Part shown: one piece after another, positions 40,780 through 56,580 of the stretch | How positions within the stretch are numbered: position 1 is the first letter of the stretch | Layout: the number at the start of each line of letters is the position of its first letter | NCBI GenBank assembly: GCA_947630975.1 | Contig: CANRJP010000002.1 | Coordinates: forward strand, 1,096 to 65,095 | DNA: 64,000 nucleotides | From: an uncultured Clostridia bacterium | GTDB lineage: Bacteria; Bacillota; Clostridia; UMGS1883 | Reading direction: 5' to 3' | The notes under the pieces: model-generated | What the model saw: only the letters and a program-made list of their open reading frames with translations | The model's database searches: none | Told to the model about the DNA's origin: nothing | Translations under genes and position numbers: made by a program

Positions 40780-40808
40780 TTGACAGGAAGAAAATTTTGT
40801 GATATATT
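40780..40808 (+). promoter_or_regulatory. putative promoter TTGACA-17-TATATT upstream of the riboswitch
   Basis: Hexamers read directly. Followed by a (TATTATATGTG)x3 microsatellite. Confidence 0.35.
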
Positions 40809-40844
40809 ATATGTGTATTATATGTGTATTATATGTGAAACTGA

Positions 40845-41060
40845 ATAGGCTGCGGGTGCCGGGCGTTCGCCAAGGCGAAAAGGGCCCGGTGAAAAGGGAA
40901 ACAGGTGAAAGTCCTGTACGAACTCGTCACTGTAATTACGGAGCCGGGAAGGAATATGTCACTGACCCTTCGGGGTTGGGAAGGCCCTTCCAAGCGATGA
41001 TGTATAAGCCAGGAGACCTGCCCGCCGCCGGTACGCGGAGCTTCGGCTCCAATGCCACGA
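40845..41060 (+). ncRNA. cobalamin (AdoCbl) riboswitch
   Basis: GGTGCCGGG...AAGGGAA.CAGGTGAAA.TCC...GTCACTG core and B12-box AAGCCAGGAGACCTGCC at 41007-41023. Sits 5' of a B12 transport/biosynthesis operon. Confidence 0.75.
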
Positions 41061-41084
41061 GTAATTGGCAGTACGGTTAAACGG

Positions 41085-41142
41085 ACACTTGTGTGCGTCT
41101 GTTTTTGGTGCGCCTTGCTTTGCGGCAACGGCGCATTTTTTG
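41085..41142 (+). terminator. riboswitch expression-platform terminator (GCGCC...GGCGC + T6; preceded by second T-run)
   Basis: Stem followed by TTTTTT just before ATG 41158. Confidence 0.4.
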
Positions 41143-41157
41143 TTTGGAAGTGACGGC

Positions 41158-41577
41158 ATGAACGAAATAAAAGACGGAACATATACCGTCGACGTAGATC
41201 TTAGCGGCGGCAGCGGACGGGCAAAGATCGAAAGCCCGACGGAGCTTACTGTAAAGGACGGAGAAATCAAAGCCAAAATTTGTTGGGACAGCCCCAGCTA
41301 TGATTATATGGAAATCGGGGGCAGGGAGTATTATCCGGTCAATAAAGAGGGCAATTCGGTGTTTGTCATTGACGCGGAGCTGGACAGGGAGCTTTCGGTC
41401 AAGGCCGAGACCGTTGCCATGAGCAGGCCCCATATGATAGATTACACCTTGTATTTCGACTCGGCTTCACTGCGCGGGAGCGGCGGCGCGGCGTATGCCG
41501 TATGCGGCGCCGCGCTTGCGGCGATCGCCGCTGCCGCAGTTATAGTTTTAAGGATAAGGAAAAGGCATGAAAAATAA
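41158..41577 (+). CDS. hypothetical C-terminally TM-anchored protein (paralog A), first gene after B12 riboswitch
   Basis: ATG after the terminator. The 5' extension in the ORF track overlaps the riboswitch. Single C-terminal TM helix plus basic tail RIRKRHEK. Paralogous to 45380-45922. Confidence 0.55.
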   Translation: MNEIKDGTYTVDVDLSGGSGRAKIESPTELTVKDGEIKAKICWDSPSYDYMEIGGREYYPVNKEGNSVFVIDAELDRELSVKAETVAMSRPHMIDYTLYFDSASLRGSGGAAYAVCGAALAAIAAAAVIVLRIRKRHEK

Positions 41578-42715
41578 GCTCGTCATAATTTTTTTGATAA
41601 TTTTAATAATTTTGTCAGGCTGCGGAAAAGAGCCGATGGCTCCGGCTTTGCCGGACAAGGCGGAGGAATTGCCCGGCCTGACCTTCGCCGAACGGGAGGA
41701 ACTCCTCTACGCCGACCAATTCGCCATCGACCGCTATGAGGACGGGTACTCCCTGATACATATCGCGGACGGAGAAAAATATCTTGTGGCGCCGGAGAAC
41801 GGAAAAATCCCCGACGGCCTCGCCCCGGAGATAAAAGTTGTCAGGCGGCCTGTAAGCAACGTTTACATGGCGGCCACGGCGGCGATGGATCTGTTCGACG
41901 CTCTTAACAGAGTGGACGCGGTGCGCTTTTCTTCGGTCAAGGCCGACGGCTGGTACATAGACGGGGCGAGAGAGGCGATGGAGCGGGGAGAAATGCTGTA
42001 TGCCGGAAAATACAGTCTGCCGGATTACGAGCTGCTTCTCTCGGCGGGGTGCGGCCTTTCCGTACAGTCCACCATGATATATCACGCGCCGGAGGTAAGG
42101 GAAAAATTGGAGGAGCTGGGTATAACCGTGTTTGTCGACCGCTCCAGCTACGAAAGCCACCCTCTCGGCCGCTGTGAGTGGGTGAAGCTTTACGGAGAAC
42201 TGTTGGGGGAGAGCGCCTTGGCCGAAAAGCTGTTTGACGAACAAAAGTCGTATCTTGAAAGCCTCGGCCCCGCCGACGGCGGAAAGACAGCCGTCTGCTT
42301 TTACATTAGCGGCGGCGGACGGATAGTGACCCGCAGGGCCGGGGATTACGTTTCGAAAATGATTGAGCTGGCCGGAGGCAGAAATATCCTTTCCGAGCCA
42401 GGTGGGGACGGCGCTCTTTCCACCGTGACCATGGAGCCGGAGGAGTTTTATTCAAAGGCGAAGGAAGCGGACGTGATTATTTATGACGGAGCGATTACCG
42501 GCGAGATCGGCAGCGTTGACGAGCTCATATCAAAAAATTCCCTGCTGGCGGACTTCAAAGCGGTAAAAAACGGCGATGTCTGGTGTACCGGCAAGAGCTT
42601 TTTTCAGGGGACGATGAGCGTCGGCGAGACAATATCCGAACTCAATATGATTTTTACCGGCGGCTCCGGGGAGTTGTCCCATTTTTCTAAATTAAAAGGC
42701 GGCGATGCCCCTTGA
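41567..42715 (+). CDS. btuF: ABC transporter substrate-binding lipoprotein (BtuF-like, cobalamin/siderophore family)
   Basis: Lipobox ILSGC. Class III SBP architecture. Position in the riboswitch-controlled operon. Confidence 0.75.
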   Translation: MKNKLVIIFLIILIILSGCGKEPMAPALPDKAEELPGLTFAEREELLYADQFAIDRYEDGYSLIHIADGEKYLVAPENGKIPDGLAPEIKVVRRPVSNVYMAATAAMDLFDALNRVDAVRFSSVKADGWYIDGAREAMERGEMLYAGKYSLPDYELLLSAGCGLSVQSTMIYHAPEVREKLEELGITVFVDRSSYESHPLGRCEWVKLYGELLGESALAEKLFDEQKSYLESLGPADGGKTAVCFYISGGGRIVTRRAGDYVSKMIELAGGRNILSEPGGDGALSTVTMEPEEFYSKAKEADVIIYDGAITGEIGSVDELISKNSLLADFKAVKNGDVWCTGKSFFQGTMSVGETISELNMIFTGGSGELSHFSKLKGGDAP

Positions 42716-43713
42716 GACGTTTAAAATTCAAGACAGCGGCTGTATTCGCCGGGCTGGCCGCTCTGTCTCTGGTTCTTTTGGGGGCCAATCTCTTTATCGG
42801 CAGCGTCAGGCTTTCCGCCGTCGAGACGGTCGGCGGCCTTTTCTCCGGCGACGCGATAATATGGAAGATAAGGCTCCCAAGAGCTGTTGCGGCCATTCTT
42901 TTGGGCGGAGCGCTGGCCCTGTCGGGATACCTGTTGCAGACCTTTTTCAACAATCCGATCGCCGGCCCCTTTGTGCTTGGAGTCAGCTCGGGCGCCAAGC
43001 TGGCCGTGGCTCTGACAATGATAGCCGCCGCCGGAGCCGGACGGGCGTTGAACTCCTTTTCCACGGTGGCCGCAGCCTTTGCCGGATCCATGCTCTCGCT
43101 GGGATTTATTCTGCTTGTTTCGCGAAAGGTGGGACGGGTGAGCCTGCTTGTGGTCTGCGGCGTTATGATAGGCTACATCTGCTCGGCGGCGACGGATTTC
43201 GCGGTGACATTCGCCGGAGACGCGGACATAGTCAATCTGCGGGACTGGGCCATGGGCAGCTTTTCCGGCACGGATATGGACAGTGTGGCGGTCATGGCGG
43301 CGATAGTTCCGGCGGCGTCGGTTTGCGCGTTTTTGCTCTCCAAGCCGATAGGCGCTTACCGCTTGGGCGAGGGCTATGCGAGAAGCTCGGGCGTGAGGGT
43401 GGGGCTGCTCAGAGCGGCGCTCATAATCCTGTCGGGACTGCTGGCGGCCTGCGTCACCGCGTTTGCCGGGCCGGTGTCCTTTGTGGGCATAGCCGCGCCC
43501 CATATCGTGAGGCTGCTGTTGGGCACATCGAAGCCCACGGTGCTGATACCCGCCTGCTTTTTGGGAGGAGGGATATTCTGTTCGGCCTGCGACCTTGTGG
43601 CCCGCACGGCTTTTGCTCCCACCGAGCTCGGCATCAGTACGGTGACGGCGATTTTCGGTGCGCCGGTGGTAATTGGGATAATGCTTCGGCGGAAGAGGGG
43701 TGAAGCCGTGTGA
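42712..43713 (+). CDS. btuC: FecCD-family ABC permease (BtuC-like)
   Basis: ~9-10 TM segments and FecCD family signatures. Confidence 0.8.
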   Translation: MRRLKFKTAAVFAGLAALSLVLLGANLFIGSVRLSAVETVGGLFSGDAIIWKIRLPRAVAAILLGGALALSGYLLQTFFNNPIAGPFVLGVSSGAKLAVALTMIAAAGAGRALNSFSTVAAAFAGSMLSLGFILLVSRKVGRVSLLVVCGVMIGYICSAATDFAVTFAGDADIVNLRDWAMGSFSGTDMDSVAVMAAIVPAASVCAFLLSKPIGAYRLGEGYARSSGVRVGLLRAALIILSGLLAACVTAFAGPVSFVGIAAPHIVRLLLGTSKPTVLIPACFLGGGIFCSACDLVARTAFAPTELGISTVTAIFGAPVVIGIMLRRKRGEAV

Positions 43714-44477
43714 ACGATGTCCTCGTTTCGGTTGAAAACCTTTCGGCGGGCTACGGTAAGCCCGTGGCGGAAGATGTGGATTTTGCCGTCAGGGGCGGAG
43801 AAGTGCTCGTCCTCATCGGCCCGAACGGAGGAGGAAAGTCCACCCTATTGAGGACGCTTGCCGGCGAGCTTAAAAAGCTTGGCGGCAAAGTGCTCCTTTG
43901 CGGAATCGACACGGACAGGCTTTCCCCAAAAGAAAGGGCGAAAAGGCTTTCCGTCCTGCTGACCGCCCGGCCCCGCACCGACAGAATGACCTGCCGGGAG
44001 GTGGTCGAGACGGGCCGTTATCCCTACACCGGCCGTTTCGGCGTACTTTCCCGAGACGATAAAAACGCGGTGAAAAGGGCGCTGGAGCTGGCGGGAGTGT
44101 CCGAGCTGTCGGATTGTGACTTCTCGCGGATAAGCGACGGCCAGCGTCAGCGGGTGATGCTGGCGCGGGCCGTATGTCAGGAGCCGGAGGTCATGATACT
44201 CGACGAGCCCACGTCTTATCTCGACATCCACCACAAGCTGATATTTCTCGACAGCCTTCAAACGCTGGCGAAAGAAAAGTCCGTCGCCGTTATTTTGTCG
44301 ATGCACGAGCTTGACCTTGCGGAAAAAATCGCCGACCGGGCCGTATGTATAAAGGATGGCCATGTTTTTCGGTCGGGAACGCCGGACGAAATTTTTAAGG
44401 AGGAGGTCCTTCGGGAGCTTTTTGACCTCCCGGATGAACTTTATAAAAAATATTTTGTGAAAGGAAAATCATTATGA
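43710..44477 (+). CDS. btuD: ABC transporter ATP-binding protein (BtuD/FepC-like)
   Basis: Walker A GPNGGGKST, signature SDGQRQRVMLARAV, Walker B ILDEPTS. Confidence 0.85.
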   Translation: MNDVLVSVENLSAGYGKPVAEDVDFAVRGGEVLVLIGPNGGGKSTLLRTLAGELKKLGGKVLLCGIDTDRLSPKERAKRLSVLLTARPRTDRMTCREVVETGRYPYTGRFGVLSRDDKNAVKRALELAGVSELSDCDFSRISDGQRQRVMLARAVCQEPEVMILDEPTSYLDIHHKLIFLDSLQTLAKEKSVAVILSMHELDLAEKIADRAVCIKDGHVFRSGTPDEIFKEEVLRELFDLPDELYKKYFVKGKSL

Positions 44478-45376
44478 AAAAGAGAACCGCATTGGCCGCG
44501 GCCCTTGCCGCGATTCTGACCCTTGGCGGCTGCGCGTCAACAAAGACCGCCGGAGATGTTGAAAAGGAGCCCGAGACCAAAACCGCCGACAAACCGGTCA
44601 TTCTCGTGGTAAGCTTCGGCACCAGCTATAACGACAGCCGTGACAGGACGATTGGGGCCATCGAAAACGCCATCGCCGCCGCCAATCCCGATTACGAGGT
44701 GCGCAGAGCCTTTACAAGCCAGATAATAATCGACAAGCTTAAGGAGCGGGACGGCCTTGAGATAGACAATGTGGAAGAGGCCCTTGACCGCCTTGTTGCC
44801 GACGGCGTAAAAGAGCTTGTCGTCCAGCCGACCCACGTCATGAGCGGCTTTGAGTATGACGATTTGGCCGCCGCCGTTGAGGAATACAGGCCCGATTTTG
44901 ACAAGGTCGCGATGGGTAAGCCTTTGCTTACCTCCGACGGGGATTATACGAGAGTGGCGTCCGCGCTCATGGAAGCCACCGAGGAGTATGATACGGAGGA
45001 TACGGCCATTGTGTTCATGGGTCACGGCACGGAGCACGAATCCAACGGTGTCTACACCAAGCTTCAGGAAACCTTCAGTCAGGCGGAGGCGTACAATTAT
45101 TTTGTCGGCACCGTCGAGGCTACTCCCGGCCTTGAGGACGTTATGTCGAACGTTATTCTGGGCAATTATCCCAAGGTGGTATTGGAGCCCCTGATGGTCG
45201 TCGCCGGCGACCACGCCAACAACGATATGGCGGGCGACGGCGAAGATTCGTGGAAGTCCGCCATGGAGTCGGCGGGCCTCGAGGTGGAGTGTCTGCTGCG
45301 CGGCATGGGCGAGATCCCCGCCATACAGCAGATATATGTTGACCACGTTGCCGACGCGATAGCCTCGATGGAGTAA
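44474..45376 (+). CDS. cbiK: CbiK-type sirohydrochlorin cobaltochelatase homolog with lipoprotein signal peptide (extracytoplasmic)
   Basis: Close motif-by-motif similarity to Salmonella CbiK (VVSFGTSY, FMGHG, MVVAGDHANNDMAGDGEDSWK). N-terminal lipobox LTLGGC. Confidence 0.8.
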   Translation: MKKRTALAAALAAILTLGGCASTKTAGDVEKEPETKTADKPVILVVSFGTSYNDSRDRTIGAIENAIAAANPDYEVRRAFTSQIIIDKLKERDGLEIDNVEEALDRLVADGVKELVVQPTHVMSGFEYDDLAAAVEEYRPDFDKVAMGKPLLTSDGDYTRVASALMEATEEYDTEDTAIVFMGHGTEHESNGVYTKLQETFSQAEAYNYFVGTVEATPGLEDVMSNVILGNYPKVVLEPLMVVAGDHANNDMAGDGEDSWKSAMESAGLEVECLLRGMGEIPAIQQIYVDHVADAIASME

Positions 45377-45379
45377 AAG

Positions 45380-45922
45380 ATGAAAAAAATATCAGCGTTT
45401 ATCTTTTTACTTTTCATTTTTGCGCCGTCGGTCTTTGCCGCCGATGAAGCCGCCTTATACGGCAAAGACATAAAGGACGGCGTATATCAAATAGAGGTGG
45501 AGTCCAGTTCCTCGATGTTCCGCGTCGTCGGCTGTGAGCTGACCGTAAAAGAGGGCGAAATGACCGCCCTCATGACCCTGAGCGGCACCGGATATGAAAA
45601 GCTGTTCATGGGCACCGGCGAGGAGGCCGCCTCCGCTCGGGACGGCGAGTACATATATTTCGAGGAGGACAGCCAAGGCAAATATACTTACAGCGTTCCG
45701 GTAGAAGCGCTGAACACGGATATTTCCTGCGCGGCATTCAGCATACGGCGTCAAAAATGGTACGACCGCACGCTTGTATTCAAAGCCGACACTCTGCCCG
45801 AGGGAGCCGTCGGCGCCTCCAAACCTGTGCCGCTGCCTCTGACGGTAACGGCGGTGCTTGTTATTGCCGCGTCCGCTTTTGTTCTGATTATGGAAAGGCG
45901 GCGGAGCCGGAATGAAAACTGA
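45380..45922 (+). CDS. hypothetical secreted, C-terminally TM-anchored protein (paralog B)
   Basis: Signal peptide and C-terminal TM plus basic tail ERRRSRNEN. Shares IKDG.Y...V.....ELTVK[DE]GE and downstream blocks with 41158-41577. Confidence 0.55.
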   Translation: MKKISAFIFLLFIFAPSVFAADEAALYGKDIKDGVYQIEVESSSSMFRVVGCELTVKEGEMTALMTLSGTGYEKLFMGTGEEAASARDGEYIYFEEDSQGKYTYSVPVEALNTDISCAAFSIRRQKWYDRTLVFKADTLPEGAVGASKPVPLPLTVTAVLVIAASAFVLIMERRRSRNEN

Positions 45923-46553
45923 AAATTCCTCTCCCACGGAGATAGAACGGCGAAGCATGGAAATCATCGAGGCGGAGCTGGGCCCGACGCCGGAGCTTTC
46001 CGCCCCGGAAAGGGCGGTGCTCAAACGTGTCGTCCATACCACGGCGGATCTCGATTACCGCCGGAACCTTAAGTTTTCCGACGACGCCGTGGAGCTTGGC
46101 CTTGAGGCGCTGAGGGCGGGGGCGGTCATCGTAACCGATACGAACATGGCTCTCGCGGGCATAAGCAAGCCGACGCTTAAGGCGCTCCGCTGCGAGGCGG
46201 TCTGTTACATGGCCGCCCCGGAAGCGGCGGAAAGGGCCGAAATGAACGGAACCACCCGAGCCTCCGCCGCGATGGATATGGCGGCGGAGACATACGAAAA
46301 CAGAAACGTCATATTCGCGGTAGGCAACGCTCCCACGGCTCTCCTTCGGCTCTGTGAGCTGGCGGAAAACGGCGGTATAAGCCCCGCCCTTGTTATCGGC
46401 GCTCCGGTGGGATTTGTAAATGTGGAGCGCTCGAAGGAGCGCTTAACAAGGTCGGGACTGCCCTATATTGCCGCCATGGGCCGCAAAGGCGGCAGCGCGG
46501 TGGCGGCGGCGGTCTGCAACGCGCTTTTGTATATGCTTTACCGCAGGGAGTGA
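45912..46553 (+). CDS. cbiC: cobalt-precorrin-8 methylmutase
   Basis: CbiC/CobH family length and motifs (VIVTDTNM, VGNAPTAL). Confidence 0.85.
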   Translation: MKTENSSPTEIERRSMEIIEAELGPTPELSAPERAVLKRVVHTTADLDYRRNLKFSDDAVELGLEALRAGAVIVTDTNMALAGISKPTLKALRCEAVCYMAAPEAAERAEMNGTTRASAAMDMAAETYENRNVIFAVGNAPTALLRLCELAENGGISPALVIGAPVGFVNVERSKERLTRSGLPYIAAMGRKGGSAVAAAVCNALLYMLYRRE

Positions 46554-46557
46554 CGCC

Positions 46558-47697
46558 ATGCCGGAGAGTTATGTATTCAAAAACGGCAAGCGCCTGCGCC
46601 GAGGCTATACCACCGGCTCCTGCGCCGCCGCCGCGGCGGGAGCGGCGGCGGAAATGCTGCTGACCGGTAAAACCGTCGGGAGCGTTCGGCTGCGGGTCCC
46701 GGCGGGAGAGACCCTCGAGCTTGAAATTTTGGAGCCGGAGATCGGCGGGGATTACGCCGCCTGTTATGTGAGGAAGGACGCCGGCGACGATCCGGACGTG
46801 ACGGACGGAATTTTGGTCGGCGCAAAGGCGGAAATTATCCCCTCCGGAATTGAGATAGTCGGAGGAGAGGGCGTGGGACGGGTAACAAAGCCCGGCCTTG
46901 ACCAACCGGTGGGGGCGGCGGCCATAAACTCCGTGCCCCGAAAAATGATAGCGGAGGCGGCGGCCACAGCCTGCGAGGCCTTGGGCTATGAGGGCGGGAT
47001 AAGGATCACCGTTTCCGTCCCCGGCGGAGAGGAGCTTGCGAAAAAAACCTACAATCCGCGCATGGGTATCGTGGGCGGGATTTCGATAATCGGCACCACC
47101 GGCATTGTGGAGCCCATGAGCACGGCCGCCGTGATCGAAACGGCCCGCGCGGAAATGCGTATGCGCCGGGCCGAAGGGGCGGAAACCCTCCTGCTCACGG
47201 TCGGCAATTACGGCAGGAGCTTTCTGGCCCGTGAACTGCCGCTGGCCTTTGACAAAAGCGTCAAATGCGGGAACTTTATCGGCGAGGCCCTTGATTCCGC
47301 CGTCGAGCTGGGATTTTCCGGCGCACTCATCGTGGGCCACATAGGCAAGCTTGTGAAACTGGGCGCGGGCATAATGAACACCCACTCTTCCGTTGCCGAC
47401 GGGCGCATGGAGGTGCTCGTGACCTGCGGCCTGCTGGCCGGAACAGAGTCGGAGACGCTTAAAAAGATCCCCGGCTGCGCCACTGCGGACGCGGCTCTCG
47501 CCCTCCTTGACGCCGACGGGACAAGGGAAAAAACAGCCGCCCTGCTTATGGAACGGGCCGGATATTACCTCGACGCGAGGGTGAAGGGTGAAATAAAAAC
47601 GGGCGCGGTGATGTTTTCGGACAGGTTTGGAGTCATAGGCAGGACTGACGGAGCGGAAGAACTGGTTGAAAGGATCGTGAGGGAGAACAATGGTTAA
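46558..47697 (+). CDS. cbiD: cobalt-precorrin-5B C1-methyltransferase
   Basis: GYTTGSCAAAA N-terminal motif. Confidence 0.85.
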   Translation: MPESYVFKNGKRLRRGYTTGSCAAAAAGAAAEMLLTGKTVGSVRLRVPAGETLELEILEPEIGGDYAACYVRKDAGDDPDVTDGILVGAKAEIIPSGIEIVGGEGVGRVTKPGLDQPVGAAAINSVPRKMIAEAAATACEALGYEGGIRITVSVPGGEELAKKTYNPRMGIVGGISIIGTTGIVEPMSTAAVIETARAEMRMRRAEGAETLLLTVGNYGRSFLARELPLAFDKSVKCGNFIGEALDSAVELGFSGALIVGHIGKLVKLGAGIMNTHSSVADGRMEVLVTCGLLAGTESETLKKIPGCATADAALALLDADGTREKTAALLMERAGYYLDARVKGEIKTGAVMFSDRFGVIGRTDGAEELVERIVRENNG

Positions 47698-48445
47698 TTT
47701 TGTCGGAGCGGGCTGCGGCGCTTACGACCTTATAACGGTGCGCGGCGCACGGCTGCTCGGCGAGGCTGACGTGATAATTTACGCCGGTTCGCTGGTGAAC
47801 GAGGAGCTTCTCGGTTACTCGAGACCCGGCTGCGAGATATATAACAGTGCGCTGCTGACGTTGGACGAGGTCGTTGATATTATCGCGGAGGCCGAAAAAA
47901 AGGGCGGGAGAGTTGTTCGTCTGCACAGCGGCGACCCGTGTGTTTACGGAGCCGTCCGTGAGCAGATGGACAGACTGCGGGAGTTGGGCATAGCTTTTGA
48001 GGTCTGTCCCGGCGTCAGCTCATTCTGCGGAGCGGCGGCGGCCCTGAAAGCGGAGTACACCGTTCCCGGCGTCAGCCAGAGTGTTATAATTACCCGCATG
48101 GCGGGAAAAACTCCAGTGCCGGAGGGGGAGAGCATAGCCGCTCTCGCCGCTCACGGAGCGACAATGGTGATTTTTCTCAGCGCGGCCATGCTTAAGGAAT
48201 TGGCGGCGGAGCTGATAAAGGGCGGATATTCTCCCAAAACTCCGGCGGCCATAGTGTATAAGGCCTGCTGGCCCGACGAAAAAATCCTCCGCTGCACCGT
48301 GGGCACTCTGGCGGAAACGGCGGAAAGAGAAGGCGTGAAAAAGACGGCCCTCATTTGCGTGGGCAATTTTCTGGACGGGGATCATGAGCTTTCAAAACTC
48401 TATGACCGCAGCTTTACCACGGAATTCAGAAAGGCGAAAATATGA
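47690..48445 (+). CDS. cbiF: cobalt-precorrin-4 C11-methyltransferase
   Basis: TP_methylase fold (VGAGCGA.DLITVRG). CobM length. Confidence 0.85.
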   Translation: MVNFVGAGCGAYDLITVRGARLLGEADVIIYAGSLVNEELLGYSRPGCEIYNSALLTLDEVVDIIAEAEKKGGRVVRLHSGDPCVYGAVREQMDRLRELGIAFEVCPGVSSFCGAAAALKAEYTVPGVSQSVIITRMAGKTPVPEGESIAALAAHGATMVIFLSAAMLKELAAELIKGGYSPKTPAAIVYKACWPDEKILRCTVGTLAETAEREGVKKTALICVGNFLDGDHELSKLYDRSFTTEFRKAKI

Positions 48446-49458
48446 AAACGGCGGTCATATCTCTTACAAAAAACGGAATTGCCATCTCGGAAAAGATTGC
48501 CGCAAAAATGGACTGCGACCGATACGCCTTTGAGAAATACGCCGCGGAGGGGTCGGCTCCGTTTTCGTCCCTGAGCGCCCTCACGGCGGATATTTTCAGG
48601 AAATACGAGGGTCTTGTTTTCATTTGCGCCGTGGGCATAGCGGTCAGGGCCGTTGCTCCGCACCTTAAGTCAAAGCTCGCCGACCCCGCCGTCGTCGCAG
48701 TGGACGAAAGGGGAAAATTTGCGGTTTCGCTCCTTTCCGGCCATGTCGGCGGAGCAAACGTCCTTGCGGAAAAAATAGCGTCAGCCGTCGGCGCCGTCCC
48801 GGTAATTACCACGGCTACCGACGTGGGTGGAAAATTTTCACCCGACAGCTTCGCGAAGGCCAACGGCCTGCACGTTTTGGAGCCGGAATTGGCAAAGACC
48901 GTGGCGGTCGCCGCGGTAAACGGCGAACCGGTGGGCTTTTACAGCGACTGCCCGTGGAAAAACAAACCCGCCGCGCTGACGGACGAGGCGGATACGGGGG
49001 TTTGCGTTTCGGCCGACGGAGAGAAGAACCCTTTTAAAACTACCCTGCACCTGGTGCCGAAAAATGTGGTTTTGGGAGTGGGCTGCCGAAAAAACACCGA
49101 TTCGGAGGTCTTTGAAAAATTTGTCCTGAGGGCTCTTAAAGGTGCCGGAATTCCCCTTTACAGGCTGGCGGAGGTGCGGACGATAGACCGCAAAAAAGAC
49201 GAAAGGGCGATACTCGACTTTTGCCTGAAATACCGTCTGCCGCTTGAGCTGTATTCCCCCGAGGAGCTGGCCGGAGTGGAGGGCGGTTTCGGTTCGTCGG
49301 ACTTTGTGCTGAAAACCGTGGGCGTGGACAACGTGTGCGAACGGTGCGCCGCTTTTGGCGGCGGAAGGATCGCGCTGCCCAAAACAGCCGGAGAAGGCGT
49401 GACCGTGGCGGCGGCGGAAAAGGAAATCATGCTCGATTTTGAAAGGAAAATATTATGA
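48442..49458 (+). CDS. cbiG: cobalt-precorrin-5A hydrolase
   Basis: CbiG N-, middle- and C-domain pattern. Operon position between cbiF and cbiH. Confidence 0.8.
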   Translation: MKTAVISLTKNGIAISEKIAAKMDCDRYAFEKYAAEGSAPFSSLSALTADIFRKYEGLVFICAVGIAVRAVAPHLKSKLADPAVVAVDERGKFAVSLLSGHVGGANVLAEKIASAVGAVPVITTATDVGGKFSPDSFAKANGLHVLEPELAKTVAVAAVNGEPVGFYSDCPWKNKPAALTDEADTGVCVSADGEKNPFKTTLHLVPKNVVLGVGCRKNTDSEVFEKFVLRALKGAGIPLYRLAEVRTIDRKKDERAILDFCLKYRLPLELYSPEELAGVEGGFGSSDFVLKTVGVDNVCERCAAFGGGRIALPKTAGEGVTVAAAEKEIMLDFERKIL

Positions 49459-50174
49459 AGCTGTACATAGTGGGCTTCGGCCCCGGGAACCCGGATGGAA
49501 TGACCCTTGCCGCCCGCGCCGCCATAGAGCGGAGCGAACTGGTTGTGGGCTATACCGCGTATACCGAGCTGATGAGAAAAGTATTTCCGGAAAAAGAGTA
49601 TCTTTCCACGCCCATGAGAGGCGAGCTTGAACGGGTGAGGCTGGCTTTGGAAAGGGCGGCGGACGGAACCGTTTCGCTCATATGCAGCGGCGACAGTGAG
49701 GTTTACGGCCTTGCGGGTCTCGCTTTGGAGACCGCGCCCGACGGAGCGGATATCGAGATAGTGCCCGGCGTCACGGCGGCTCTTTCGGGAGGGGCGCTGC
49801 TGGGTGCGCCCTTAGGTCACGACTTTGCCGTCATAAGCCTTTCGGATCTGCTGACCCCGTGGGAAAAAATTGAAAAACGCCTTATATGCGCGGCCAAGGG
49901 CGATTTTGTTACAGTACTTTACAACCCCTCTTCAAAAAAACGGGCGGACGGCCTCGCCCGCGCCTGCAATGTTCTGCTCAAGATCAAGCGTCCGGACACG
50001 GTCTGCGGCCTCGCTAAGAACGTGGGGCGCGGCGGTGAGGAGACCCGCATACTCACGCTTGAGGAGCTTAAGGACACCGCCGTTGATATGTTCACCACGG
50101 TGTTTGTGGGCAGCAGCGAAACAAAGGCCGTAGACGGAAGAATGGTCACTCCGAGAGGATACAAAAATGTGTAG
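49455..50174 (+). CDS. cbiH: cobalt-precorrin-3B C17-methyltransferase
   Basis: TP_methylase motifs (VGFGPGNPDGMT). Confidence 0.85.
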   Translation: MKLYIVGFGPGNPDGMTLAARAAIERSELVVGYTAYTELMRKVFPEKEYLSTPMRGELERVRLALERAADGTVSLICSGDSEVYGLAGLALETAPDGADIEIVPGVTAALSGGALLGAPLGHDFAVISLSDLLTPWEKIEKRLICAAKGDFVTVLYNPSSKKRADGLARACNVLLKIKRPDTVCGLAKNVGRGGEETRILTLEELKDTAVDMFTTVFVGSSETKAVDGRMVTPRGYKNV

Positions 50175-50910
50175 TATACTTATTTTCGGCGGCACCGCCG
50201 AAGGGCGGGAGCTGGCCGAATTTTGCGCCGAAAGGAATATTCCCGTATGCGTCAGTGTCGCCACGGATTACGGAGCCGCCCTGCTGAGCGGGGTAAAGGT
50301 TTTGACCGGGCGGCTGTCGGCGGCGGAAATGCTGAAGCTGATAACCGAAAACGGCTTTGAGCTTGTCATTGACGCCACTCACCCCTTTGCCCGCGAGGTC
50401 ACGGCAAATATCCGCCGGGCCTGTGAAGGGGCGGGAGCACGGCTGTTAAGAGTGCTGCGGGAGAAGGATTGCGGCGGCGGCGGAAAATATTTCGACGGCA
50501 TGGACGATTTGATCGGTTATTTGTCCGAAACGGACGGAAATCTGCTGATAACTACCGGCAGCAAGGAGCTTGGCGGCTTTTGCGCCCTTGACAGTTACAG
50601 CAAGCGCTGCGCCGTCCGTGTGCTGCCTGTCGGAGAAGCGCGCTGCCTTGAGCTGGGGTTTGCGCCGGAACGCGTAATTGCCGCAAAAGGCCCTTTCACG
50701 AAGGAACAGAACGTTGAGCACATGAAAAAATTCGGCGTGCGGTACCTTGTAACCAAGGACAGCGGCAAGGCCGGCGGACTCGGCGAGAAGCTGGCCGCCG
50801 CGAAGGAGCTGGGCGTCACGGCGCTCATACTGAAAAGGCCCGAGGAAAACGGCTTTTCCGTCGACAAGGCGAAACAAATCATACTTGAAATTGGTGAAGC
50901 TCATGGTTAA
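50167..50910 (+). CDS. cbiJ: cobalt-precorrin-6A reductase
   Basis: CobK/CbiJ N-terminus (ILIFGGTAEGRELA). Confidence 0.8.
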   Translation: MCSILIFGGTAEGRELAEFCAERNIPVCVSVATDYGAALLSGVKVLTGRLSAAEMLKLITENGFELVIDATHPFAREVTANIRRACEGAGARLLRVLREKDCGGGGKYFDGMDDLIGYLSETDGNLLITTGSKELGGFCALDSYSKRCAVRVLPVGEARCLELGFAPERVIAAKGPFTKEQNVEHMKKFGVRYLVTKDSGKAGGLGEKLAAAKELGVTALILKRPEENGFSVDKAKQIILEIGEAHG

Positions 50911-52090
50911 AGAAATTTTCATAGTGGGTTCAGGTATGGACGGGGCCGCGACCTTGACCGCCGAAGCGGGAGCGGCGATTGCCGGAGCCGATGAGCTTAT
51001 TGGCTCAAAACGTTTGCTGGAGCCGTTCGGGGATTTTAACAAACCCGTGTTCGAGTCCTTTTCGGCTGCCGAAATCGCGGCCCATATCGCGGAAAGCGAA
51101 AATAAAAGCGCCGCCGTGCTCATGTCGGGCGACTGCGGCTTTTACAGCGGCGCTCGGGGGCTTTTGCCGCTTTTAAAGGACTGTGACGTAAAGATAATTC
51201 CCGGAATATCCGCTCCCGTCTATTTTTGCGCAAAGCTAAAAATGCCTTGGCAGGATCTGCATTTTGTCAGTCTGCACGGCAGAGAAGGGGCCGTTGTGCG
51301 GCCCGTATGCTCACACGAAAAAACATTCTTTTTGCTGGGCGGCAGGCTCACTCCCGCGAATATCTGCCAAAGACTGACCGAATACGGCCTTGGCGGCCTG
51401 ACCGTCCACGTCGGCGAAAATTTCGCCCTTGAAAACGAAAGGATCATATCGGCTCCGGCCCGCGACCTGACGGAGCTGAAAACCGGCGGCCTTTGCGCCG
51501 TTATAGCGGAAAATCCCGGCTTCGAGCCCGGTCTGCCCGCCCTCATAAATGACGGCGAATTTGTTCGGGGCAAAACTCCCATGACAAAGGCGGAGGTGCG
51601 GTGCGTCTGCGTTTCGGGACTGAATATCGGACGGGACGACGTCTGCTGGGACGTGGGCGCGGGCACAGGCTCCGTGAGCGTTGAAATGGCTTTCCGCTGC
51701 GGCGGGGGCAGAGTCTACGCTGTGGAGCGCGACCCCGAGGCGATTAAACTCATAGACCAAAACCGGAAAAAGTTCGGCTGCGACAACATCGTGCCCGTCC
51801 ACGGAGGCGCTCCGGAAATTTTGCCGTCTCTTCCGTCGCCGGATCGGGTGTTCATTGGCGGCAGCGGAGGAAAATTAAAGGAGACAGCCGCCGCCGTAAA
51901 AGCCGCAAATCCGGCCGCGGCCGTGACCGCCACGGCCGTGTCGCTGGAAACGCTGGCCGAACTGACGGGAATTTTTTCGGAGGACAGCGAGATAACGCAG
52001 ATCGCCGTGACGCGGACAAAAAAATTCGGCGCGCATACCATGCTTTCCGCCGAAAATCCGGTGTTTATTGTGAGAGGTACGTTGAGATGA
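50903..52090 (+). CDS. cbiET: cobalt-precorrin-6B/7 methyltransferase fusion CbiE-CbiT
   Basis: N-terminal TP_methylase half. C-terminal SAM-MTase half (DVGAGTGSVSVE). Confidence 0.8.
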   Translation: MVKEIFIVGSGMDGAATLTAEAGAAIAGADELIGSKRLLEPFGDFNKPVFESFSAAEIAAHIAESENKSAAVLMSGDCGFYSGARGLLPLLKDCDVKIIPGISAPVYFCAKLKMPWQDLHFVSLHGREGAVVRPVCSHEKTFFLLGGRLTPANICQRLTEYGLGGLTVHVGENFALENERIISAPARDLTELKTGGLCAVIAENPGFEPGLPALINDGEFVRGKTPMTKAEVRCVCVSGLNIGRDDVCWDVGAGTGSVSVEMAFRCGGGRVYAVERDPEAIKLIDQNRKKFGCDNIVPVHGGAPEILPSLPSPDRVFIGGSGGKLKETAAAVKAANPAAAVTATAVSLETLAELTGIFSEDSEITQIAVTRTKKFGAHTMLSAENPVFIVRGTLR

Positions 52091-53412
52091 AGCGCGTCAT
52101 TATAGCCGGGACCCACAGCGGCTGCGGCAAGACCGCCGTTACCTGTGCCCTTTTGCAGGCGTTGGTAAATCGCGGCCTTTCACCGTCGGCCTTTAAGTGC
52201 GGGCCGGACTACATCGATCCGATGTTCCACAGCCGCGTGATCGGCCTTCCTTCCCGAAATCTCGACCCCTGGTTCTGCGATAGGGATATGATAAACTGTA
52301 TCTTGCACAGGCACGGCGGGGAAATTTCGGTCATCGAGGGCGTTATGGGCTTTTACGACGGCGTCGGAGAAGGGGCGTCCACCCATGCTTTGACCGTTGA
52401 GACGGGGACGCCCACGGTCATTGTCGCGGACTGCAAGGGAATGAGCCTCTCGATCGGCGCGGAGATAAAAGGCTTTCTCACCTTCCGCGAGCCAAACAAT
52501 ATCGTCGGCTTTATCTTCAACCGTCTGCCGGAAAGTCTTGTACCGACGGCAAAGAGCCTTTGCGAGGAGCTTGGCACAAGGTATCTCGGGCGGCTGCCGT
52601 ACAAAAAAGAGCTGTCGATAGAAAGCCGCCGCCTGGGACTTGTGACCGCCGGTGAAATAAGTGATATAAAGCAAAAATTGGAAGAACTGTCCGGCCTTGC
52701 CGAGGAGAATATTTTGATAGACGAAATTTTGAGCCTGGGCGCGGCGGCGGAGGACGTCCCTTTCGCGCCGCCGAGTGTGCCGAAGATAGACGGAAAACCG
52801 CTGAAAATCGCCGTGGCGAGGGACAGGGCGTTTTGCTTTTATTATGAGGACAACCTCGACCTGCTTCGGGAGATGGGCTGTGAGCTTGCGGAGTTTTCGC
52901 CTTTGAGCGACGGCTCCCTGCCCGAAAATATAGACGGCCTGCTCCTCGGCGGCGGCTATCCCGAGCTTTACGCGGCGGAGCTTGCGGCAAATATCCCCAT
53001 GCTTTCGGATATACGCGGTAAAATTTTGTGCGGCCTGCCGACCGTTGCGGAGTGCGGCGGCTTCATGTACCTATGCAAAAGTATCGGCGGTCACAGAACC
53101 GTCGGCGTTATCGACGCCGAAGCCCGCGACGCCGGTCGGCTCCGCCGTTTCGGATATGTCGAGCTGCGACCTCTCGGAGAAAGCCCTTTTGGAAATTGCG
53201 GCTTGAAAGGTCACGAGTTCCACTACTGGGACGTTTGCGACCCCGGCGGGGGATATGCCGCCGTGAGGGCGAGGGACGGCTCGGAATATTTCTGCGCCCA
53301 CACCGGCCCGGCTCTGTATGCGGGCTTTCCGCACCTTTATCTGTATTCAAATCCGACGGCGGCGGCAAATTTCGTAAAAAAATGTCAGGAGTACAAAAAT
53401 GCACAGACTTAA
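52087..53412 (+). CDS. cbiA: cobyrinate a,c-diamide synthase
   Basis: N-terminal P-loop GTHSGCGKT. C-terminal glutamine amidotransferase domain. Confidence 0.85.
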   Translation: MKRVIIAGTHSGCGKTAVTCALLQALVNRGLSPSAFKCGPDYIDPMFHSRVIGLPSRNLDPWFCDRDMINCILHRHGGEISVIEGVMGFYDGVGEGASTHALTVETGTPTVIVADCKGMSLSIGAEIKGFLTFREPNNIVGFIFNRLPESLVPTAKSLCEELGTRYLGRLPYKKELSIESRRLGLVTAGEISDIKQKLEELSGLAEENILIDEILSLGAAAEDVPFAPPSVPKIDGKPLKIAVARDRAFCFYYEDNLDLLREMGCELAEFSPLSDGSLPENIDGLLLGGGYPELYAAELAANIPMLSDIRGKILCGLPTVAECGGFMYLCKSIGGHRTVGVIDAEARDAGRLRRFGYVELRPLGESPFGNCGLKGHEFHYWDVCDPGGGYAAVRARDGSEYFCAHTGPALYAGFPHLYLYSNPTAAANFVKKCQEYKNAQT

Positions 53413-54442
53413 AAATATATCCCCGCCGGACGCTGCGGCCATGGAACGGGCAAGGGAACGGTGGAACTCCGTGGCGAAGCCTCTCCACAGTCTCGGACTT
53501 TTGGAGGACGCCGTGGTGAAGATCGCCGGAATAAAGGGTAGTGAATGCTTCGAACTGAAAAAGCGCGTCGCGGTCGTGATGTGCGCCGACAACGGTGTTG
53601 TGTCCGAGGGAGTTACCCAGACGGACAGCGCCGTCACCGCTGTTGTCGCGGCGGAAGCCGCCGCCGGGCGCTCGAGCGTGAACTGCCTTGCCGCCGTATA
53701 CGGAGCCGAGGTTTTAACCGTGGATATGGGTATGAAGGCGCCCGTCCCCGGCGTCCTTGACCGCCGCATTGCCGCCGGCACCGGCAATATCGCCGACGGC
53801 CCCGCAATGAGCAGGGACGAGGCCGAAAGGGCCGTCGCCGCCGGGATAGATATCATGCGCGGCCTGAAAGAAAACGGCACGGACATAGTCGCCGCCGGGG
53901 AGATGGGTATCGGCAACACTGCCACGTCGGCCGCCGTGGCCTCGGCTTTGCTGAACCTCCCTCCCGAGCTGACTGTGGGGCGCGGCGCGGGTATAGACGG
54001 TGAGGGATTTAAGCGGAAAATTCACGCCGTCCGCCGTGCGCTGGAGATAAATCGGCCCGACCCGGACGACCCGATGGAAGTGCTCTCCAAGCTTGGCGGC
54101 TTTGATATTGCCGGAATGACGGGCCTTTTCCTGGGAGGAGCGGTTTACGGCACGCCGGTGATAATCGACGGCCTCATATCCTTGGCGGCAGCGGCGCTGG
54201 CGGTAAAAATAGCGCCGATGTCAAGGGAGTATATGCTGGCGTCCCATGCTTCAAAGGAACCGGCGGCAAAAACGCTGGCGGAAAGGCTTGGCCTGAGTCC
54301 GGTCATAACCGCCGGCCTCGCCCTCGGTGAGGGAACCGGCGCTTTGATGCTGCTGCCGCTGCTTGACGGGGCGCTGGCTGTATATAACGGTGCTCACCGC
54401 TTCGACGAGCTTCCGATGGAAAGGTATGTTGAACTATGCTGA
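53399..54442 (+). CDS. cobT: nicotinate-nucleotide--dimethylbenzimidazole phosphoribosyltransferase
   Basis: CobT family motifs (GEMGIGNTA). Confidence 0.85.
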   Translation: MHRLKNISPPDAAAMERARERWNSVAKPLHSLGLLEDAVVKIAGIKGSECFELKKRVAVVMCADNGVVSEGVTQTDSAVTAVVAAEAAAGRSSVNCLAAVYGAEVLTVDMGMKAPVPGVLDRRIAAGTGNIADGPAMSRDEAERAVAAGIDIMRGLKENGTDIVAAGEMGIGNTATSAAVASALLNLPPELTVGRGAGIDGEGFKRKIHAVRRALEINRPDPDDPMEVLSKLGGFDIAGMTGLFLGGAVYGTPVIIDGLISLAAAALAVKIAPMSREYMLASHASKEPAAKTLAERLGLSPVITAGLALGEGTGALMLLPLLDGALAVYNGAHRFDELPMERYVELC

Positions 54443-54960
54443 CTCTTATTACCGGCGGAAGTAAGTGCGGCAAATCCCGCATGGCCGAGACCCTGGCCGT
54501 GTCTTGCGGCCTGCCGCTTTACTATATCGCCACTATGGAGCCCTCGGGGCGGGAGGCGGAGATCCTGATAGGCCGCCATCGAAGGCAGCGCGAGGGCAAG
54601 GGCTTTGTCACGGTCGAGCGATATACCGATATTGGCGGCGTTTTCTTGCCCAGAGGCTGCTGTGCACTGTTGGAGGACGCGGGCAACCTTTTGGCAAACG
54701 AGATGTTTTCGGCCAAGGCTCCCGCCCCCGCGGAAAAGATAATTGCCGGAATAGAAAAGCTGAAAAAAACGGCCGCCCGACTCATAGTTGTGACAAATGA
54801 GGTTGGCCGCGACGGCCTGAACTATTCCGCCGAAACGAGGGAATATATCAGGCTGATGGGGGAGATAAACCGCCGCGCCGCCGAAATGGCGGACATGGTT
54901 ATCGAAGCCGTTTTCGGCATACCCGTGACGCTGAAAGGAGAACGCCCGGAATGCTTATAA
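54436..54960 (+). CDS. cobU: adenosylcobinamide kinase / adenosylcobinamide-phosphate guanylyltransferase
   Basis: MLTLITGGSKCGKS P-loop. 174 aa. Confidence 0.85.
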   Translation: MLTLITGGSKCGKSRMAETLAVSCGLPLYYIATMEPSGREAEILIGRHRRQREGKGFVTVERYTDIGGVFLPRGCCALLEDAGNLLANEMFSAKAPAPAEKIIAGIEKLKKTAARLIVVTNEVGRDGLNYSAETREYIRLMGEINRRAAEMADMVIEAVFGIPVTLKGERPECL

Positions 54961-55724: not shown

Positions 55725-56047
55725 GACTTATTGTGGGCGGGGCCCATCAGGGCAAGACCCGCTACGCGGAAACAAAATACGGCGGATGCGTGGGCGGCTT
55801 CCAAATCAAGATACAGGAATGGCTCAGGGTCGGTCTGGATCCTTTTGCCGAAACGGAAAAATTCCTTGCGGAGCATCCCGACGCCGTCATAGTTATGGAC
55901 GAGATAGGCTGCGGAATAGTGCCGATAGAAAAAGATGACCGCGCCTGGCGCGAGGCCGTGGGCCGGATCGGGTGCGCTCTCGCGGAAAAGGCCGAGACGG
56001 TGGAGCGTATTGTCTGCGGCATTCCGGTAAAAATCAAGGGGCTGTAA
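55721..56047 (+). CDS. short CobU-like paralog (108 aa) lacking the central region
   Basis: ATG overlaps the cobS stop (ATGA). N-terminus MRLIVGGAHQGKTRYAE and C-terminus GIPVKIKGL match the CobU ends. The stop codon lies inside the TIR of 530-bp element copy 3. Confidence 0.5.
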   Translation: MRLIVGGAHQGKTRYAETKYGGCVGGFQIKIQEWLRVGLDPFAETEKFLAEHPDAVIVMDEIGCGIVPIEKDDRAWREAVGRIGCALAEKAETVERIVCGIPVKIKGL

Positions 56048-56563: not shown

Positions 56564-56580
56564 ATCAAGGAGTGAAAATT

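Follow-up and report, generated by a model that had tools for sequence, protein, structure and literature searches.

A gene module in a 64-kb stretch of DNA from an uncultured Clostridia bacterium (the window) is read here, with moderate confidence and from its sequence, as an Isd-like cell-surface relay for corrinoids that is repressed by a cobalamin riboswitch. The ligand would most likely be a corrinoid, i.e. a complete cobamide and/or an incomplete one such as cobinamide or cobyric-acid-type precursors. In its make-up the module resembles a heme-capture-like relay plus a surface metal-inserting enzyme, placed under a B12-sensing RNA switch. Its genes are conserved as a set among gut Clostridia, and relatives occur in at least 574 species-representative genomes. 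The reading is supported by the riboswitch, by the tetrapyrrole-handling families of the proteins, by the co-occurrence and natural fusions of the genes, by loci in which the module stands alone or next to late/salvage genes, and by the precedent of the iht locus of Porphyromonas gingivalis. The features are listed in Table 1.

Table 1. Features of the riboswitch-controlled operon and their positions in the window.
Feature	Position	Strand	Remarks
Promoter-like site TTGACA-17 nt-TATATT, TG preceding the -10 element	40780..40808	+	11/12 consensus matches; putative
Cobalamin riboswitch aptamer, RF00174	40837-41039	+	122.1 bits, E 3.8e-30, full model 1-189
Expression platform: terminator-like hairpin followed by UUUUUUGUUU	41109..41145	+	Read from the letters; putative
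ORF1 (NEAT_B type), 139 aa	41158..41577	+	NEAT domain at residues ~5-108, C-terminal TM helix, basic tail
Substrate-binding lipoprotein, Peripla_BP_2, lipobox LSGC	41567..42715	+	PF01497, E 1.4e-27
FecCD-family permease, BtuC-like	42712..43713	+	PF01032, E 3.6e-71
ABC transporter ATPase (BtuD/IsdF-partner type)	43710..44477	+	PF00005, E 1.3e-28
Exported lipoprotein CbiK, class II cobaltochelatase fold	44474..45376	+	PF06180, 292.7 bits; triad intact
ORF2 (NEAT_A type), 180 aa	45380..45922	+	Signal peptide, NEAT domain at ~30-140, C-terminal TM helix, basic tail
Cobamide biosynthesis genes	45912..61068	+	Pfam; co-transcribed

RF00174 was the sole match in an Rfam scan of the window, and its score is well above the gathering score of 31.5 bits, so that the B12 riboswitch which the initial annotation had placed ahead of an uptake operon stands. 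The hairpin of the putative expression platform consists of 10 bp with one bulge and a UUUGCG loop, and its UUUUUUGUUU stretch lies 12 nt before the start of ORF1. Competing helices were seen in the RNA fold of 41036-41160 (z -2.4). Control of the operon may be exerted by transcription attenuation. Homologous riboswitches were found by Rfam upstream of the same module in 7/7 loci, and a covariance model located a B12 riboswitch directly upstream, at most 675 nt ahead of the first module gene, in 67 of the 72 assessable loci (93%); the remaining five lack it. In other words, the co-occurrence with B12 riboswitches in related organisms, on which the initial annotation had made its reading depend, is present.

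The genes follow each other in the order ORF1, binding lipoprotein, permease, ATPase, CbiK and ORF2. Then come the cobamide synthesis genes CbiC, CbiD, CbiF, CbiG, CbiH, CbiJ, CbiET, CbiA, CobT, CobU, CobS and a short CobU-like ORF and, past this ORF and a gap, CobC, CbiB, CobD, CbiP and BtuR. Most junctions are overlaps of 4-11 nt. The run of about 20 kb had been called continuous; it does extend to the end of BtuR at 61068, but is broken once, by a 530-nt non-coding gap (56048-56580).

ORF1 and ORF2 are genuine paralogs (BLASTP, 28% identity over about 150 residues, E 2e-10), and the TM helix and basic tail proposed for both, with a signal peptide in ORF2 only, were recovered. The signal peptide of ORF2 is predicted to be cleavable at ..SVFA/AD. 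Its absence from ORF1 is conserved, i.e. in most related loci there is an in-frame stop a few codons 5' of the start. Since ORF1 has no signal peptide, its outside location is an assumption and its outside-facing topology a putative one.

Both paralogs fall within the NEAT (heme-receptor) superfamily, in which they form a divergent branch and are not standard members. Fold comparison recovered the eight-stranded immunoglobulin-like beta-sandwich of NEAT domains, with Hbp2-N2, IsdC and IsdX1 as the best structural matches. In Pfam, ORF2 scores 14 bits (E 0.07) against PF05031, which is below the gathering score of 32.8 bits, and ORF1 has no match; among the family relatives 16/54 and 24/46 match at E<=0.01, the best at 9e-9. 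The fold and the Pfam matches of the relatives show that the paralogs, called novel in the initial annotation, do not have a wholly novel fold. The kinship formally touches the outcome that the initial annotation had named as fatal to it, i.e. membership in a characterised family unrelated to corrinoids such as NEAT/heme. The FMN_bind (NqrC/RnfG-type) resemblance also proposed for them was supported neither by Pfam nor by the fold search and was rejected.

The heme-iron ligand motif YxxxY, located on the last strand of the domain, is kept in neither protein. This strand reads P91-H92-M-I-D-Y96-T-L-Y in ORF1 and K126-W127-Y128-D129-R130-T-L-V-F in ORF2, i.e. the motif is replaced by H-x3-Y in type B and by K-W-Y-D-R in type A. 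The conserved residues are found in the corresponding lip and beta7-beta8 region, their placement being taken from model secondary structure and not from a residue-level structural alignment.

The transporter had been designated BtuFCD. The permease and the ATPase agree with this designation; the best PDB match of the permease is E. coli BtuC (2.5e-45), with only a slight lead over HmuU (9.5e-40), followed by FhuB (2.2e-39). The binding protein does not agree with it. A profile of 16 sequences of its family matched Listeria Lmo2184 (E 7e-10) and IsdE (0.013), and no BtuF chain was among the PDB matches at E<=1, whether a single sequence or the profile was used. The binding protein is thus of the Isd type rather than of the BtuF type, and because it does not match BtuF the name BtuFCD is a contextual one only. 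An IsdE-like binding lipoprotein and a FecCD permease adjoining NEAT proteins is what an Isd-type system contains.

The module shares with the Isd/Hbp-type relays (IsdA/B/C/H-IsdDEF of S. aureus, Hbp1/Hbp2-Lmo2184 of Listeria, IsdX1/X2/IsdC of B. anthracis) the NEAT-fold surface proteins, several NEAT domains in series, and a class III lipoprotein binding protein with a FecCD permease and an ABC ATPase. It differs from them in that it is under a cobalamin riboswitch where they are under Fur, has no LPXTG motif and is anchored by lipobox or C-terminal TM helix instead of by sortase, has no gene for a heme-degrading enzyme (IsdG/I) in the operon, and lies within or near cobamide genes. Moreover, its NEAT sequences in the window are so divergent that they miss the Pfam threshold, the YxxxY motif is substituted, and an exported CbiK is an integral, sometimes fused, component.

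The CbiK homolog carries the lipoprotein signal MKKRTALAAALAAILTLGGC, with n-region, h-region and the lipobox LGGC, in agreement with the initial annotation, and is therefore not of the cytoplasmic biosynthetic kind. It aligns with S. enterica CbiK (1qgo, E 1e-54), P. gingivalis FetB (9b86, E 5e-46) and D. vulgaris CbiK(P) (2xvx, E 1.3e-41), and stays under the NCBIfam equivalog cut-off (257.6 vs 400 bits). The catalytic triad H145/E175/H207 of the 1qgo alignment corresponds to H184/E215/H247 in the CbiK of the window, is shared with FetB, and is invariant in 65/65 exported homologs from the loci. A lipobox is present in 57 and a signal peptide in 9 of the 73 CbiK homologs in the loci (either one in 66/73). 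The extracytoplasmic location stands, but it is not unprecedented: secretion signal, chelatase site, adjoining FecCD-type importer and B12 riboswitch are those of the exported type represented by CbiK(P) and IhtB/FetB. CbiK(P) is likewise exported, but is soluble and periplasmic and not a lipoprotein; we know of no link between it and NEAT proteins or a B12 riboswitch. It has retained the chelatase site, and a metallated tetrapyrrole is bound by it (cited in PMC13065792). The CbiK of the module may be a binder or an enzyme. The conservation of the triad would be unneeded for plain binding of a finished corrinoid and hints at extracellular metal chemistry.

The nearest analogue of the module is the ihtABCDE locus of P. 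gingivalis (PMC3764172), where a B12 riboswitch stands together with genes for a homolog of BtuB, for IhtB/FetB, which is a CbiK-like lipoprotein of the cell surface, and for an ABC importer. Riboswitch, surface CbiK homolog and FecCD-type importer are thus found together in both (PMC3764172, PMC12094164). The iht locus is, however, Gram-negative, and capture and outer-membrane passage are performed by the TonB-dependent BtuB homolog IhtA and not by NEAT proteins. In the literature this locus is read as related to iron/heme or Mn-PPIX (PMC13065792).

CbiK, NEAT_A, NEAT_B, the binding protein and FecCD are all present in 64 of the 80 loci examined. The common gene order is CbiK, NEAT_A, NEAT_B, binding protein, and the pairs that occur as natural fusions match it: CbiK with NEAT_A (loci L028, L052 and L070), NEAT_A with NEAT_B in lipoproteins of about 300 aa, and the binding protein behind NEAT domains (P0254, P0268, P0323 and P0384). 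NEAT_B is in this way linked to the binding protein by natural fusion. The complete loci and the fusions point to functional linkage of the parts. The module is often found within cbi operons. In several loci it lies directly 5' of late/salvage genes alone, CbiP-CobT-CobU-CobS-CbiB (L027, L054, L067, L078), and in Butyricicoccus porcorum and Blautia it forms a stand-alone 5-gene operon; stand-alone loci are far from cbi genes and beside housekeeping genes. Because of these stand-alone operons the exported CbiK belongs to the transporter and not to biosynthesis. Relatives carry the name 'Iron transporter' in UniRef.

All extracytoplasmic parts come from tetrapyrrole-handling families, i.e. NEAT, CbiK, Lmo2184/IsdE-like and BtuC-like. 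As a corrinoid relay the module would work as follows. At low intracellular AdoCbl the riboswitch would permit readthrough into the operon. Binding of the ligand outside the membrane would fall to CbiK, a lipoprotein, and to NEAT_A (ORF2), which is anchored in the membrane. NEAT_B (ORF1) would pass the ligand to the Isd-type binding protein, and the BtuC-like permease and the ATPase would import it. CbiA, CbiP, CbiB, CobU, CobS, CobT and BtuR would then complete, remodel and adenosylate it. The order of hand-off among CbiK, NEAT_A, NEAT_B and the binding protein is a proposed one, and whether the ligand is a corrinoid, a cobalt-tetrapyrrole or heme is what we infer from this context. Against a corrinoid relay count the heme-type families, the lack of likeness to BtuF, the strict triad, the missing signal peptide of ORF1 and the 5/72 loci free of a riboswitch. 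Corrinoids are bulkier than heme, and to our knowledge no ligands other than heme or metalloporphyrins have been described for NEAT domains and for the nearest binding proteins.

It is possible, if unlikely, that the module acquires cobalt: the surface CbiK would load scarce Co2+ into a porphyrin or sirohydrochlorin-like molecule, the NEAT domains would bind the Co-tetrapyrrole in the way they bind heme, and the heme-type importer would bring it in to supply cobalt for making B12. Cobalt transporters are common targets of B12 riboswitches, the module is often part of cbi operons, and a CbiM motif is absent from the window and from all 80 loci, although its absence within 20-kb loci says little on the whole genome. 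The unchanged triad and the Isd-type binding protein fit this scheme as well, as do the Co and Mn chelatase activity of the homologous surface FetB on porphyrin in vitro (PMC13065792) and the binding of non-iron metalloporphyrins, including Co-PPIX, by NEAT domains (PDB 3qzp). Such a scheme requires, however, an external tetrapyrrole supply and an intracellular dechelatase, both so far hypothetical, and it is at odds with operons that stand alone far from cbi genes or are coupled to late/salvage genes only.

It is distinctly improbable that an early precursor (uroporphyrin(ogen) III, precorrin-2 or sirohydrochlorin) is imported after surface cobalt insertion by CbiK, the product entering the CbiL-to-CbiA pathway of a cell with incomplete early steps. 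The analogous iht/FetB locus does occur in P. gingivalis, described as a heme auxotroph (PMC13403362). Apart from the exported CbiK, which is intact, no chelatase was seen; no cytoplasmic CbiK/CbiX was found in the 64-kb window and no hem or cobA genes in the 20-kb operon. A CbiL-like methylase is missing from the window too, however, which means that essential early genes lie elsewhere anyway, probably alongside a cytoplasmic chelatase. Reduced early tetrapyrrole intermediates are unstable, and we know of no evidence that they are available in the gut; also, stand-alone loci beside housekeeping genes suit biosynthesis poorly. Least probable of all is ordinary Isd-like uptake of heme or iron-porphyrin, with a riboswitch that reflects cross-regulation of the tetrapyrrole economy and not the substrate: the NEAT fold, the Lmo2184/IsdE-like binding protein, the UniRef name and the original reports of exported CbiKs (CbiK(P), FetB) as heme-binding (PMC12094164) speak for it, but an AdoCbl-type riboswitch at so many loci gives no rationale for heme control, YxxxY is not kept, the window proteins are below the NEAT threshold, neither a heme oxygenase nor a sortase gene is among the operon genes, and the module lies within cobamide operons.

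For the corrinoid relay, E. coli BtuFCD offers a similar permease, an ABC ATPase and B12-riboswitch control, but has no NEAT or CbiK components and a binding protein to which that of the module has no detectable similarity. A proposed functional analogue are the surface corrinoid-binding lipoproteins BtuG/BtuH/BtuJ of Bacteroides, which with BtuB provide riboswitch-controlled, multi-protein extracellular corrinoid capture ahead of a transporter (PMC6143338, PMC13616437); their folds and families are unrelated to those of the module, and they need an outer membrane.

Overall, the initial annotation is confirmed for the riboswitch, the operon, the paralogs and the sorting signals, i.e. a riboswitch-controlled ABC importer with membrane-anchored beta-domain paralogs and an exported CbiK, and fails on FMN_bind and BtuF. 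It had called the surface system undescribed, and no published description was found in the searchable literature; a 2026 review treats Gram-positive extracellular corrinoid capture as uncharacterised. The module is a probable route by which bacteria that have only a wall collect B12-type compounds, a step undescribed for Gram-positives.

The two membrane-anchored proteins that bracket the importer and CbiK, ORF1 and ORF2, are true paralogs as judged from BLASTP (28% identity, E 2e-10); the paralogy rests on this search, since both alignments in a profile-profile comparison of the two families held fused two-domain proteins. Both proteins end in a hydrophobic helix followed by a basic tail; a cleavable signal peptide is confined to ORF2. 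They fall below every Pfam and NCBIfam threshold, the best Pfam match of ORF2 being a weak one to NEAT (E 0.07). In the AlphaFold models, calculated from the family alignments, the beta-domains are confident (block pLDDT 95-98). When the models were compared with the whole PDB by Foldseek the best 50 matches were all NEAT domains, with no closer solved relative among them. A direct PDB sequence search with the paralogs gave marginal matches only (the N-terminal part vs IsdX1, E 0.19). Pfam NEAT was matched at E<=0.01 by 16 of the 54 ORF2-type and 24 of the 46 ORF1-type relatives (best 9e-9), which supports the suggestion that the kinship with NEAT is one of homology, beyond a shared fold. The resemblance to FMN_bind domains proposed in the initial annotation is supported neither by Pfam nor by the fold comparison.

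As judged from strand placement in the models, the conserved residues are located at the heme-holding positions of NEAT domains. These are the lip after strand 1 (SSSSMF in ORF2, LSGGSGRA in ORF1) and the beta7-beta8 hairpin with the last strand (C117, A118, A119, S121, K124, W127, Y128, D129 and R130 in ORF2; T85, A87, M88, S89, P91, H92, I94 and Y96 in ORF1). The canonical YxxxY is retained in neither type of domain; its place is taken by H-x3-Y in the ORF1-type and by a single Tyr between Lys and Arg in the ORF2-type. On these models ORF1 and ORF2 are NEAT-superfamily domains (called NEAT_B and NEAT_A type, respectively) with an apparently remodelled pocket.

Over its whole length, the CbiK of the window can be aligned with that of S. 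enterica (1e-54), with FetB of P. gingivalis (5e-46) and with the periplasmic CbiK of D. vulgaris (1e-41). His145/Glu175/His207 are retained as H184/E215/H247, and this chelatase triad is invariant in the CbiK homologs from related loci (65 out of 65); a lipobox or signal peptide is present in 66 out of 73 homologs. The permease is closest to E. coli BtuC (2.5e-45), narrowly above HmuU and FhuB. A profile of 16 binding-protein sequences finds Lmo2184 of the Listeria Isd-like locus (7e-10) and IsdE (0.013); it retrieves no BtuF, which rules out a BtuF identity for the binding protein. The ATPase of the Lachnospiraceae/Butyricicoccus type of module is 367-375 aa long and has an extra C-terminal PF27219 (MJ0874) domain that is missing from the 255-aa ATPase of the window.

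The full-length cobalamin riboswitch was the sole Rfam family found in the 64-kb window. The module and cobamide genes that follow it overlap or abut, with a single interruption, a 530-nt non-coding stretch (56048-56580), so that the operon anatomy described in the initial annotation was correct. RNA folding indicates that competing helices are also possible in the leader, and the riboswitch likely acts by transcription attenuation. The promoter-like -10 hexamer is followed, before the aptamer begins, by three perfect tandem copies of TATTATATGTG (40805-40837). The 530-nt stretch gave no Rfam match at E<=1 and contains a perfect 13-bp hairpin, CCCCACAAACAAC-TTT-GTTGTTTGTGGGG, near 56193-56221; it could hold an internal terminator, a promoter or a novel RNA. 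A 108-aa ORF (55721-56047), whose start overlaps the cobS stop codon (ATGA), covers no more of CobU than the C-terminal third (PF02283 positions 113-168, E 1e-12), full-length CobU being separately encoded at 54436-54960. The divergent gene upstream (38555-40612, - strand) encodes an unusual multidomain protein with GH16, a copper amine oxidase N-terminal domain and Y_phosphatase3.

Features of the module operon in the window and, in the last two rows, long ATPases of related loci
Feature	Position	Strand	Remarks
Strong promoter-like site	40780-40808		TTGACA-17-TATATT; 5' of riboswitch
Cobalamin riboswitch	40837-41039	+	Rfam, 122.1 bits vs gathering score 31.5
Terminator-like hairpin and U-run	41109-41145		Read from sequence; ends 12 nt 5' of first start codon
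ORF1	41158-41577		139 aa
Peripla_BP_2 lipoprotein (binding protein)	41567-42715		
FecCD permease	42712-43713		
ABC ATPase	43710-44477		
CbiK	44474-45376		n-region, h-region, lipobox LGGC
ORF2	45380-45922		180 aa
CbiC, D, F, G, H, J, ET, A, CobT, U, S, CobC, CbiB, CobD, CbiP, BtuR	45912-61068		Cobamide biosynthesis
Long ATPase, loci L085/L086	13098-14225		With PF27219
Long ATPase, loci L087/L088	13113-14216		With PF27219

The distribution of the module was investigated by a species-level scan (one genome per species), in which ORF2 relatives were found in at least 574 species-representative genomes. Among the matches listed the carriers are almost all Clostridia, including Lachnospiraceae, Oscillospiraceae, Ruminococcus and others. 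With the ORF1-type (NEAT_B) domain profile, an exhaustive search gave 1726 sequence-cluster representatives at E<=1e-3. Of the 80 loci fetched, 64 have CbiK, NEAT_A, NEAT_B, binding protein and permease together, and two gene orders prevail. One is that of the window, i.e. riboswitch, NEAT_B, binding protein, permease, ATPase, CbiK, NEAT_A; the commoner one is riboswitch, CbiK, a fused NEAT_A-NEAT_B lipoprotein, binding protein, permease, ATPase. The module forms a five-gene operon on its own amid housekeeping genes in Butyricicoccus porcorum and Blautia; in other genomes either the whole cbi pathway comes after it or late/salvage genes only, such as CbiP, CobT, CobU, CobS and CbiB. Four module contigs (L026, L040, L043, L082) come from bins assigned to Prevotella, Coriobacteriaceae, Gaiellales and Eggerthellaceae, which reflects either mis-binning or horizontal transfer beyond Clostridia.

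RF00174 was found by Rfam upstream of the module in all seven loci tested, and a covariance model built from these hits was run on the 72 loci with enough upstream sequence. In 67 of them the distance from the riboswitch to the module's first gene, which lies 3' of it, is 675 nt or less. Of the remaining matches in the 1.3 Mb covered, nearly all are followed by a divergent cbi operon or by a second copy of the module. An Rfam re-scan of the five riboswitch-less loci found nothing except in L074, where two tandem RF02442 (SpF66_sRNA) matches (6981-7191 and 7367-7576) lie directly 5' of the NEAT_A-NEAT_B gene. Another locus, L073, has a TwoAYGGAY RNA and a c-di-GMP-I riboswitch (11898-12060 and 12282-12366) just 3' of one module copy, and it also carries a second module in divergent orientation, which lacks CbiK and has a B12 riboswitch of its own.

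Many lipoproteins of ~300 aa join ORF2-type and ORF1-type domains. Moreover, three loci (L028, L052, L070) encode fusions of CbiK, in 1-3 copies, with a NEAT_A domain, and NEAT domains are fused ahead of the binding protein in four proteins from the ORF1-type profile search (P0254, P0268, P0323, P0384), where the binding protein has lost the signal peptide of its own. The pairwise fusions trace the order CbiK, NEAT_A, NEAT_B, binding protein, i.e. the commoner gene order, which suggests that a ligand may be handed along this chain. The profile search also gave three giant surface proteins (P0242, P0244, P0245; 883-1605 aa) with 4-6 NEAT-like domains, acidic, proline-rich linkers between them and a TM anchor at the end.

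The ORF1-type domain is clearly exported in other lineages. Signal-less NEAT_B proteins occur in the window and in L005-L008, L011-L013, L033, L047, L059 and L064, and this clade keeps the C-terminal TM helix and the strongly basic tail. A hidden signal peptide reached from an upstream alternative start of ORF1 was ruled out, as the in-frame stretch upstream overlaps the terminator; most related loci have an in-frame stop a few codons 5' of the NEAT_B start. A signal peptide is truly absent from the ORF1-type proteins of the window's clade, and ORF1 would be either translocated without a cleavable signal or a tail-anchored acceptor facing the cytoplasm.

Every extracytoplasmic part of the module belongs to a family that holds metallated tetrapyrroles. 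The NEAT fold is a textbook heme receptor, and the architecture of the module is that of the Isd/Hbp heme relay. The module is controlled by an AdoCbl-type riboswitch and adjoins cobamide genes. The reading that we find most economical, and consider somewhat probable, is a Gram-positive surface relay for corrinoids that feeds a BtuCD-like importer: the corrinoid would be caught at the cell surface by the NEAT relay and delivered to the importer. This explanation includes a milder version of the cobalt pathway considered next, in which the NEAT domains would be the first surface receptors for corrinoids known from Gram-positives.

It is unlikely, in our view, that the exported CbiK is an active extracellular cobaltochelatase and the module a "cobalt-through-tetrapyrrole" pathway. 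Here, the metal would be inserted extracellularly into a tetrapyrrole, passed along the NEAT relay and imported as a cobalt source or a ready-metallated B12 precursor. The NEAT domains would have switched from heme to cobalt tetrapyrroles, and the pathway would replace a Co2+ transporter and the cytoplasmic chelation step. That an early precursor is imported after metallation at the surface seems improbable. Both alternatives stay alive because simple binding does not account for the strict retention of the chelatase triad, FetB chelates cobalt and manganese into porphyrin in vitro (PMC13065792) and NEAT domains can hold Co-protoporphyrin (3qzp). We found no second CbiK/CbiX, CbiL-like methylase or CbiM-type cobalt transporter within the window, whose operon lacks both CbiL and a cytoplasmic CbiK, and all 80 loci are likewise devoid of a CbiM motif; this agrees with both alternatives but carries little weight, since such genes may lie elsewhere in the genome. 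Plain heme uptake agrees with the protein folds but is at odds with the regulation and gene context, and is very improbable.

To our knowledge, surface-capture machinery for B12 is known only for Bacteroidota (BtuB/BtuG/BtuH/BtuJ). The closest described parallel to the module is the P. gingivalis iht locus, where a B12 riboswitch and an ABC importer occur together with the BtuB homolog IhtA and the CbiK-like surface lipoprotein IhtB/FetB (PMC3764172, PMC12094164); the NEAT proteins stand where iht has its TonB-dependent receptor. The Bacteroides papers make no mention of a chelatase. A 2026 review calls extracellular cobamide capture in Gram-positive Firmicutes entirely uncharacterised (PMC13616437), and open-access papers and preprints gave no description that ties NEAT/Isd proteins or a CbiK lipoprotein to B12, corrinoids or riboswitches in Gram-positives. 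The module combines known kinds, i.e. a NEAT relay, riboswitch-controlled B12 uptake and an exported CbiK.

Rivalry for vitamin B12 and its analogues shapes gut communities, and the module is a concrete, widespread candidate for Gram-positive extracellular cobamide capture, of high practical interest because it is both widespread and directly testable. If the chelatase works extracellularly, it would open a new way to acquire cobalt. Should the ligand prove to be a corrinoid, the NEAT fold would serve two classes of cofactor, the exported CbiK/FetB proteins, so far a puzzle, would share a unifying role that extends to the P. gingivalis B12-riboswitch iht locus, and the module would offer a target set for manipulating B12 sharing in the gut.
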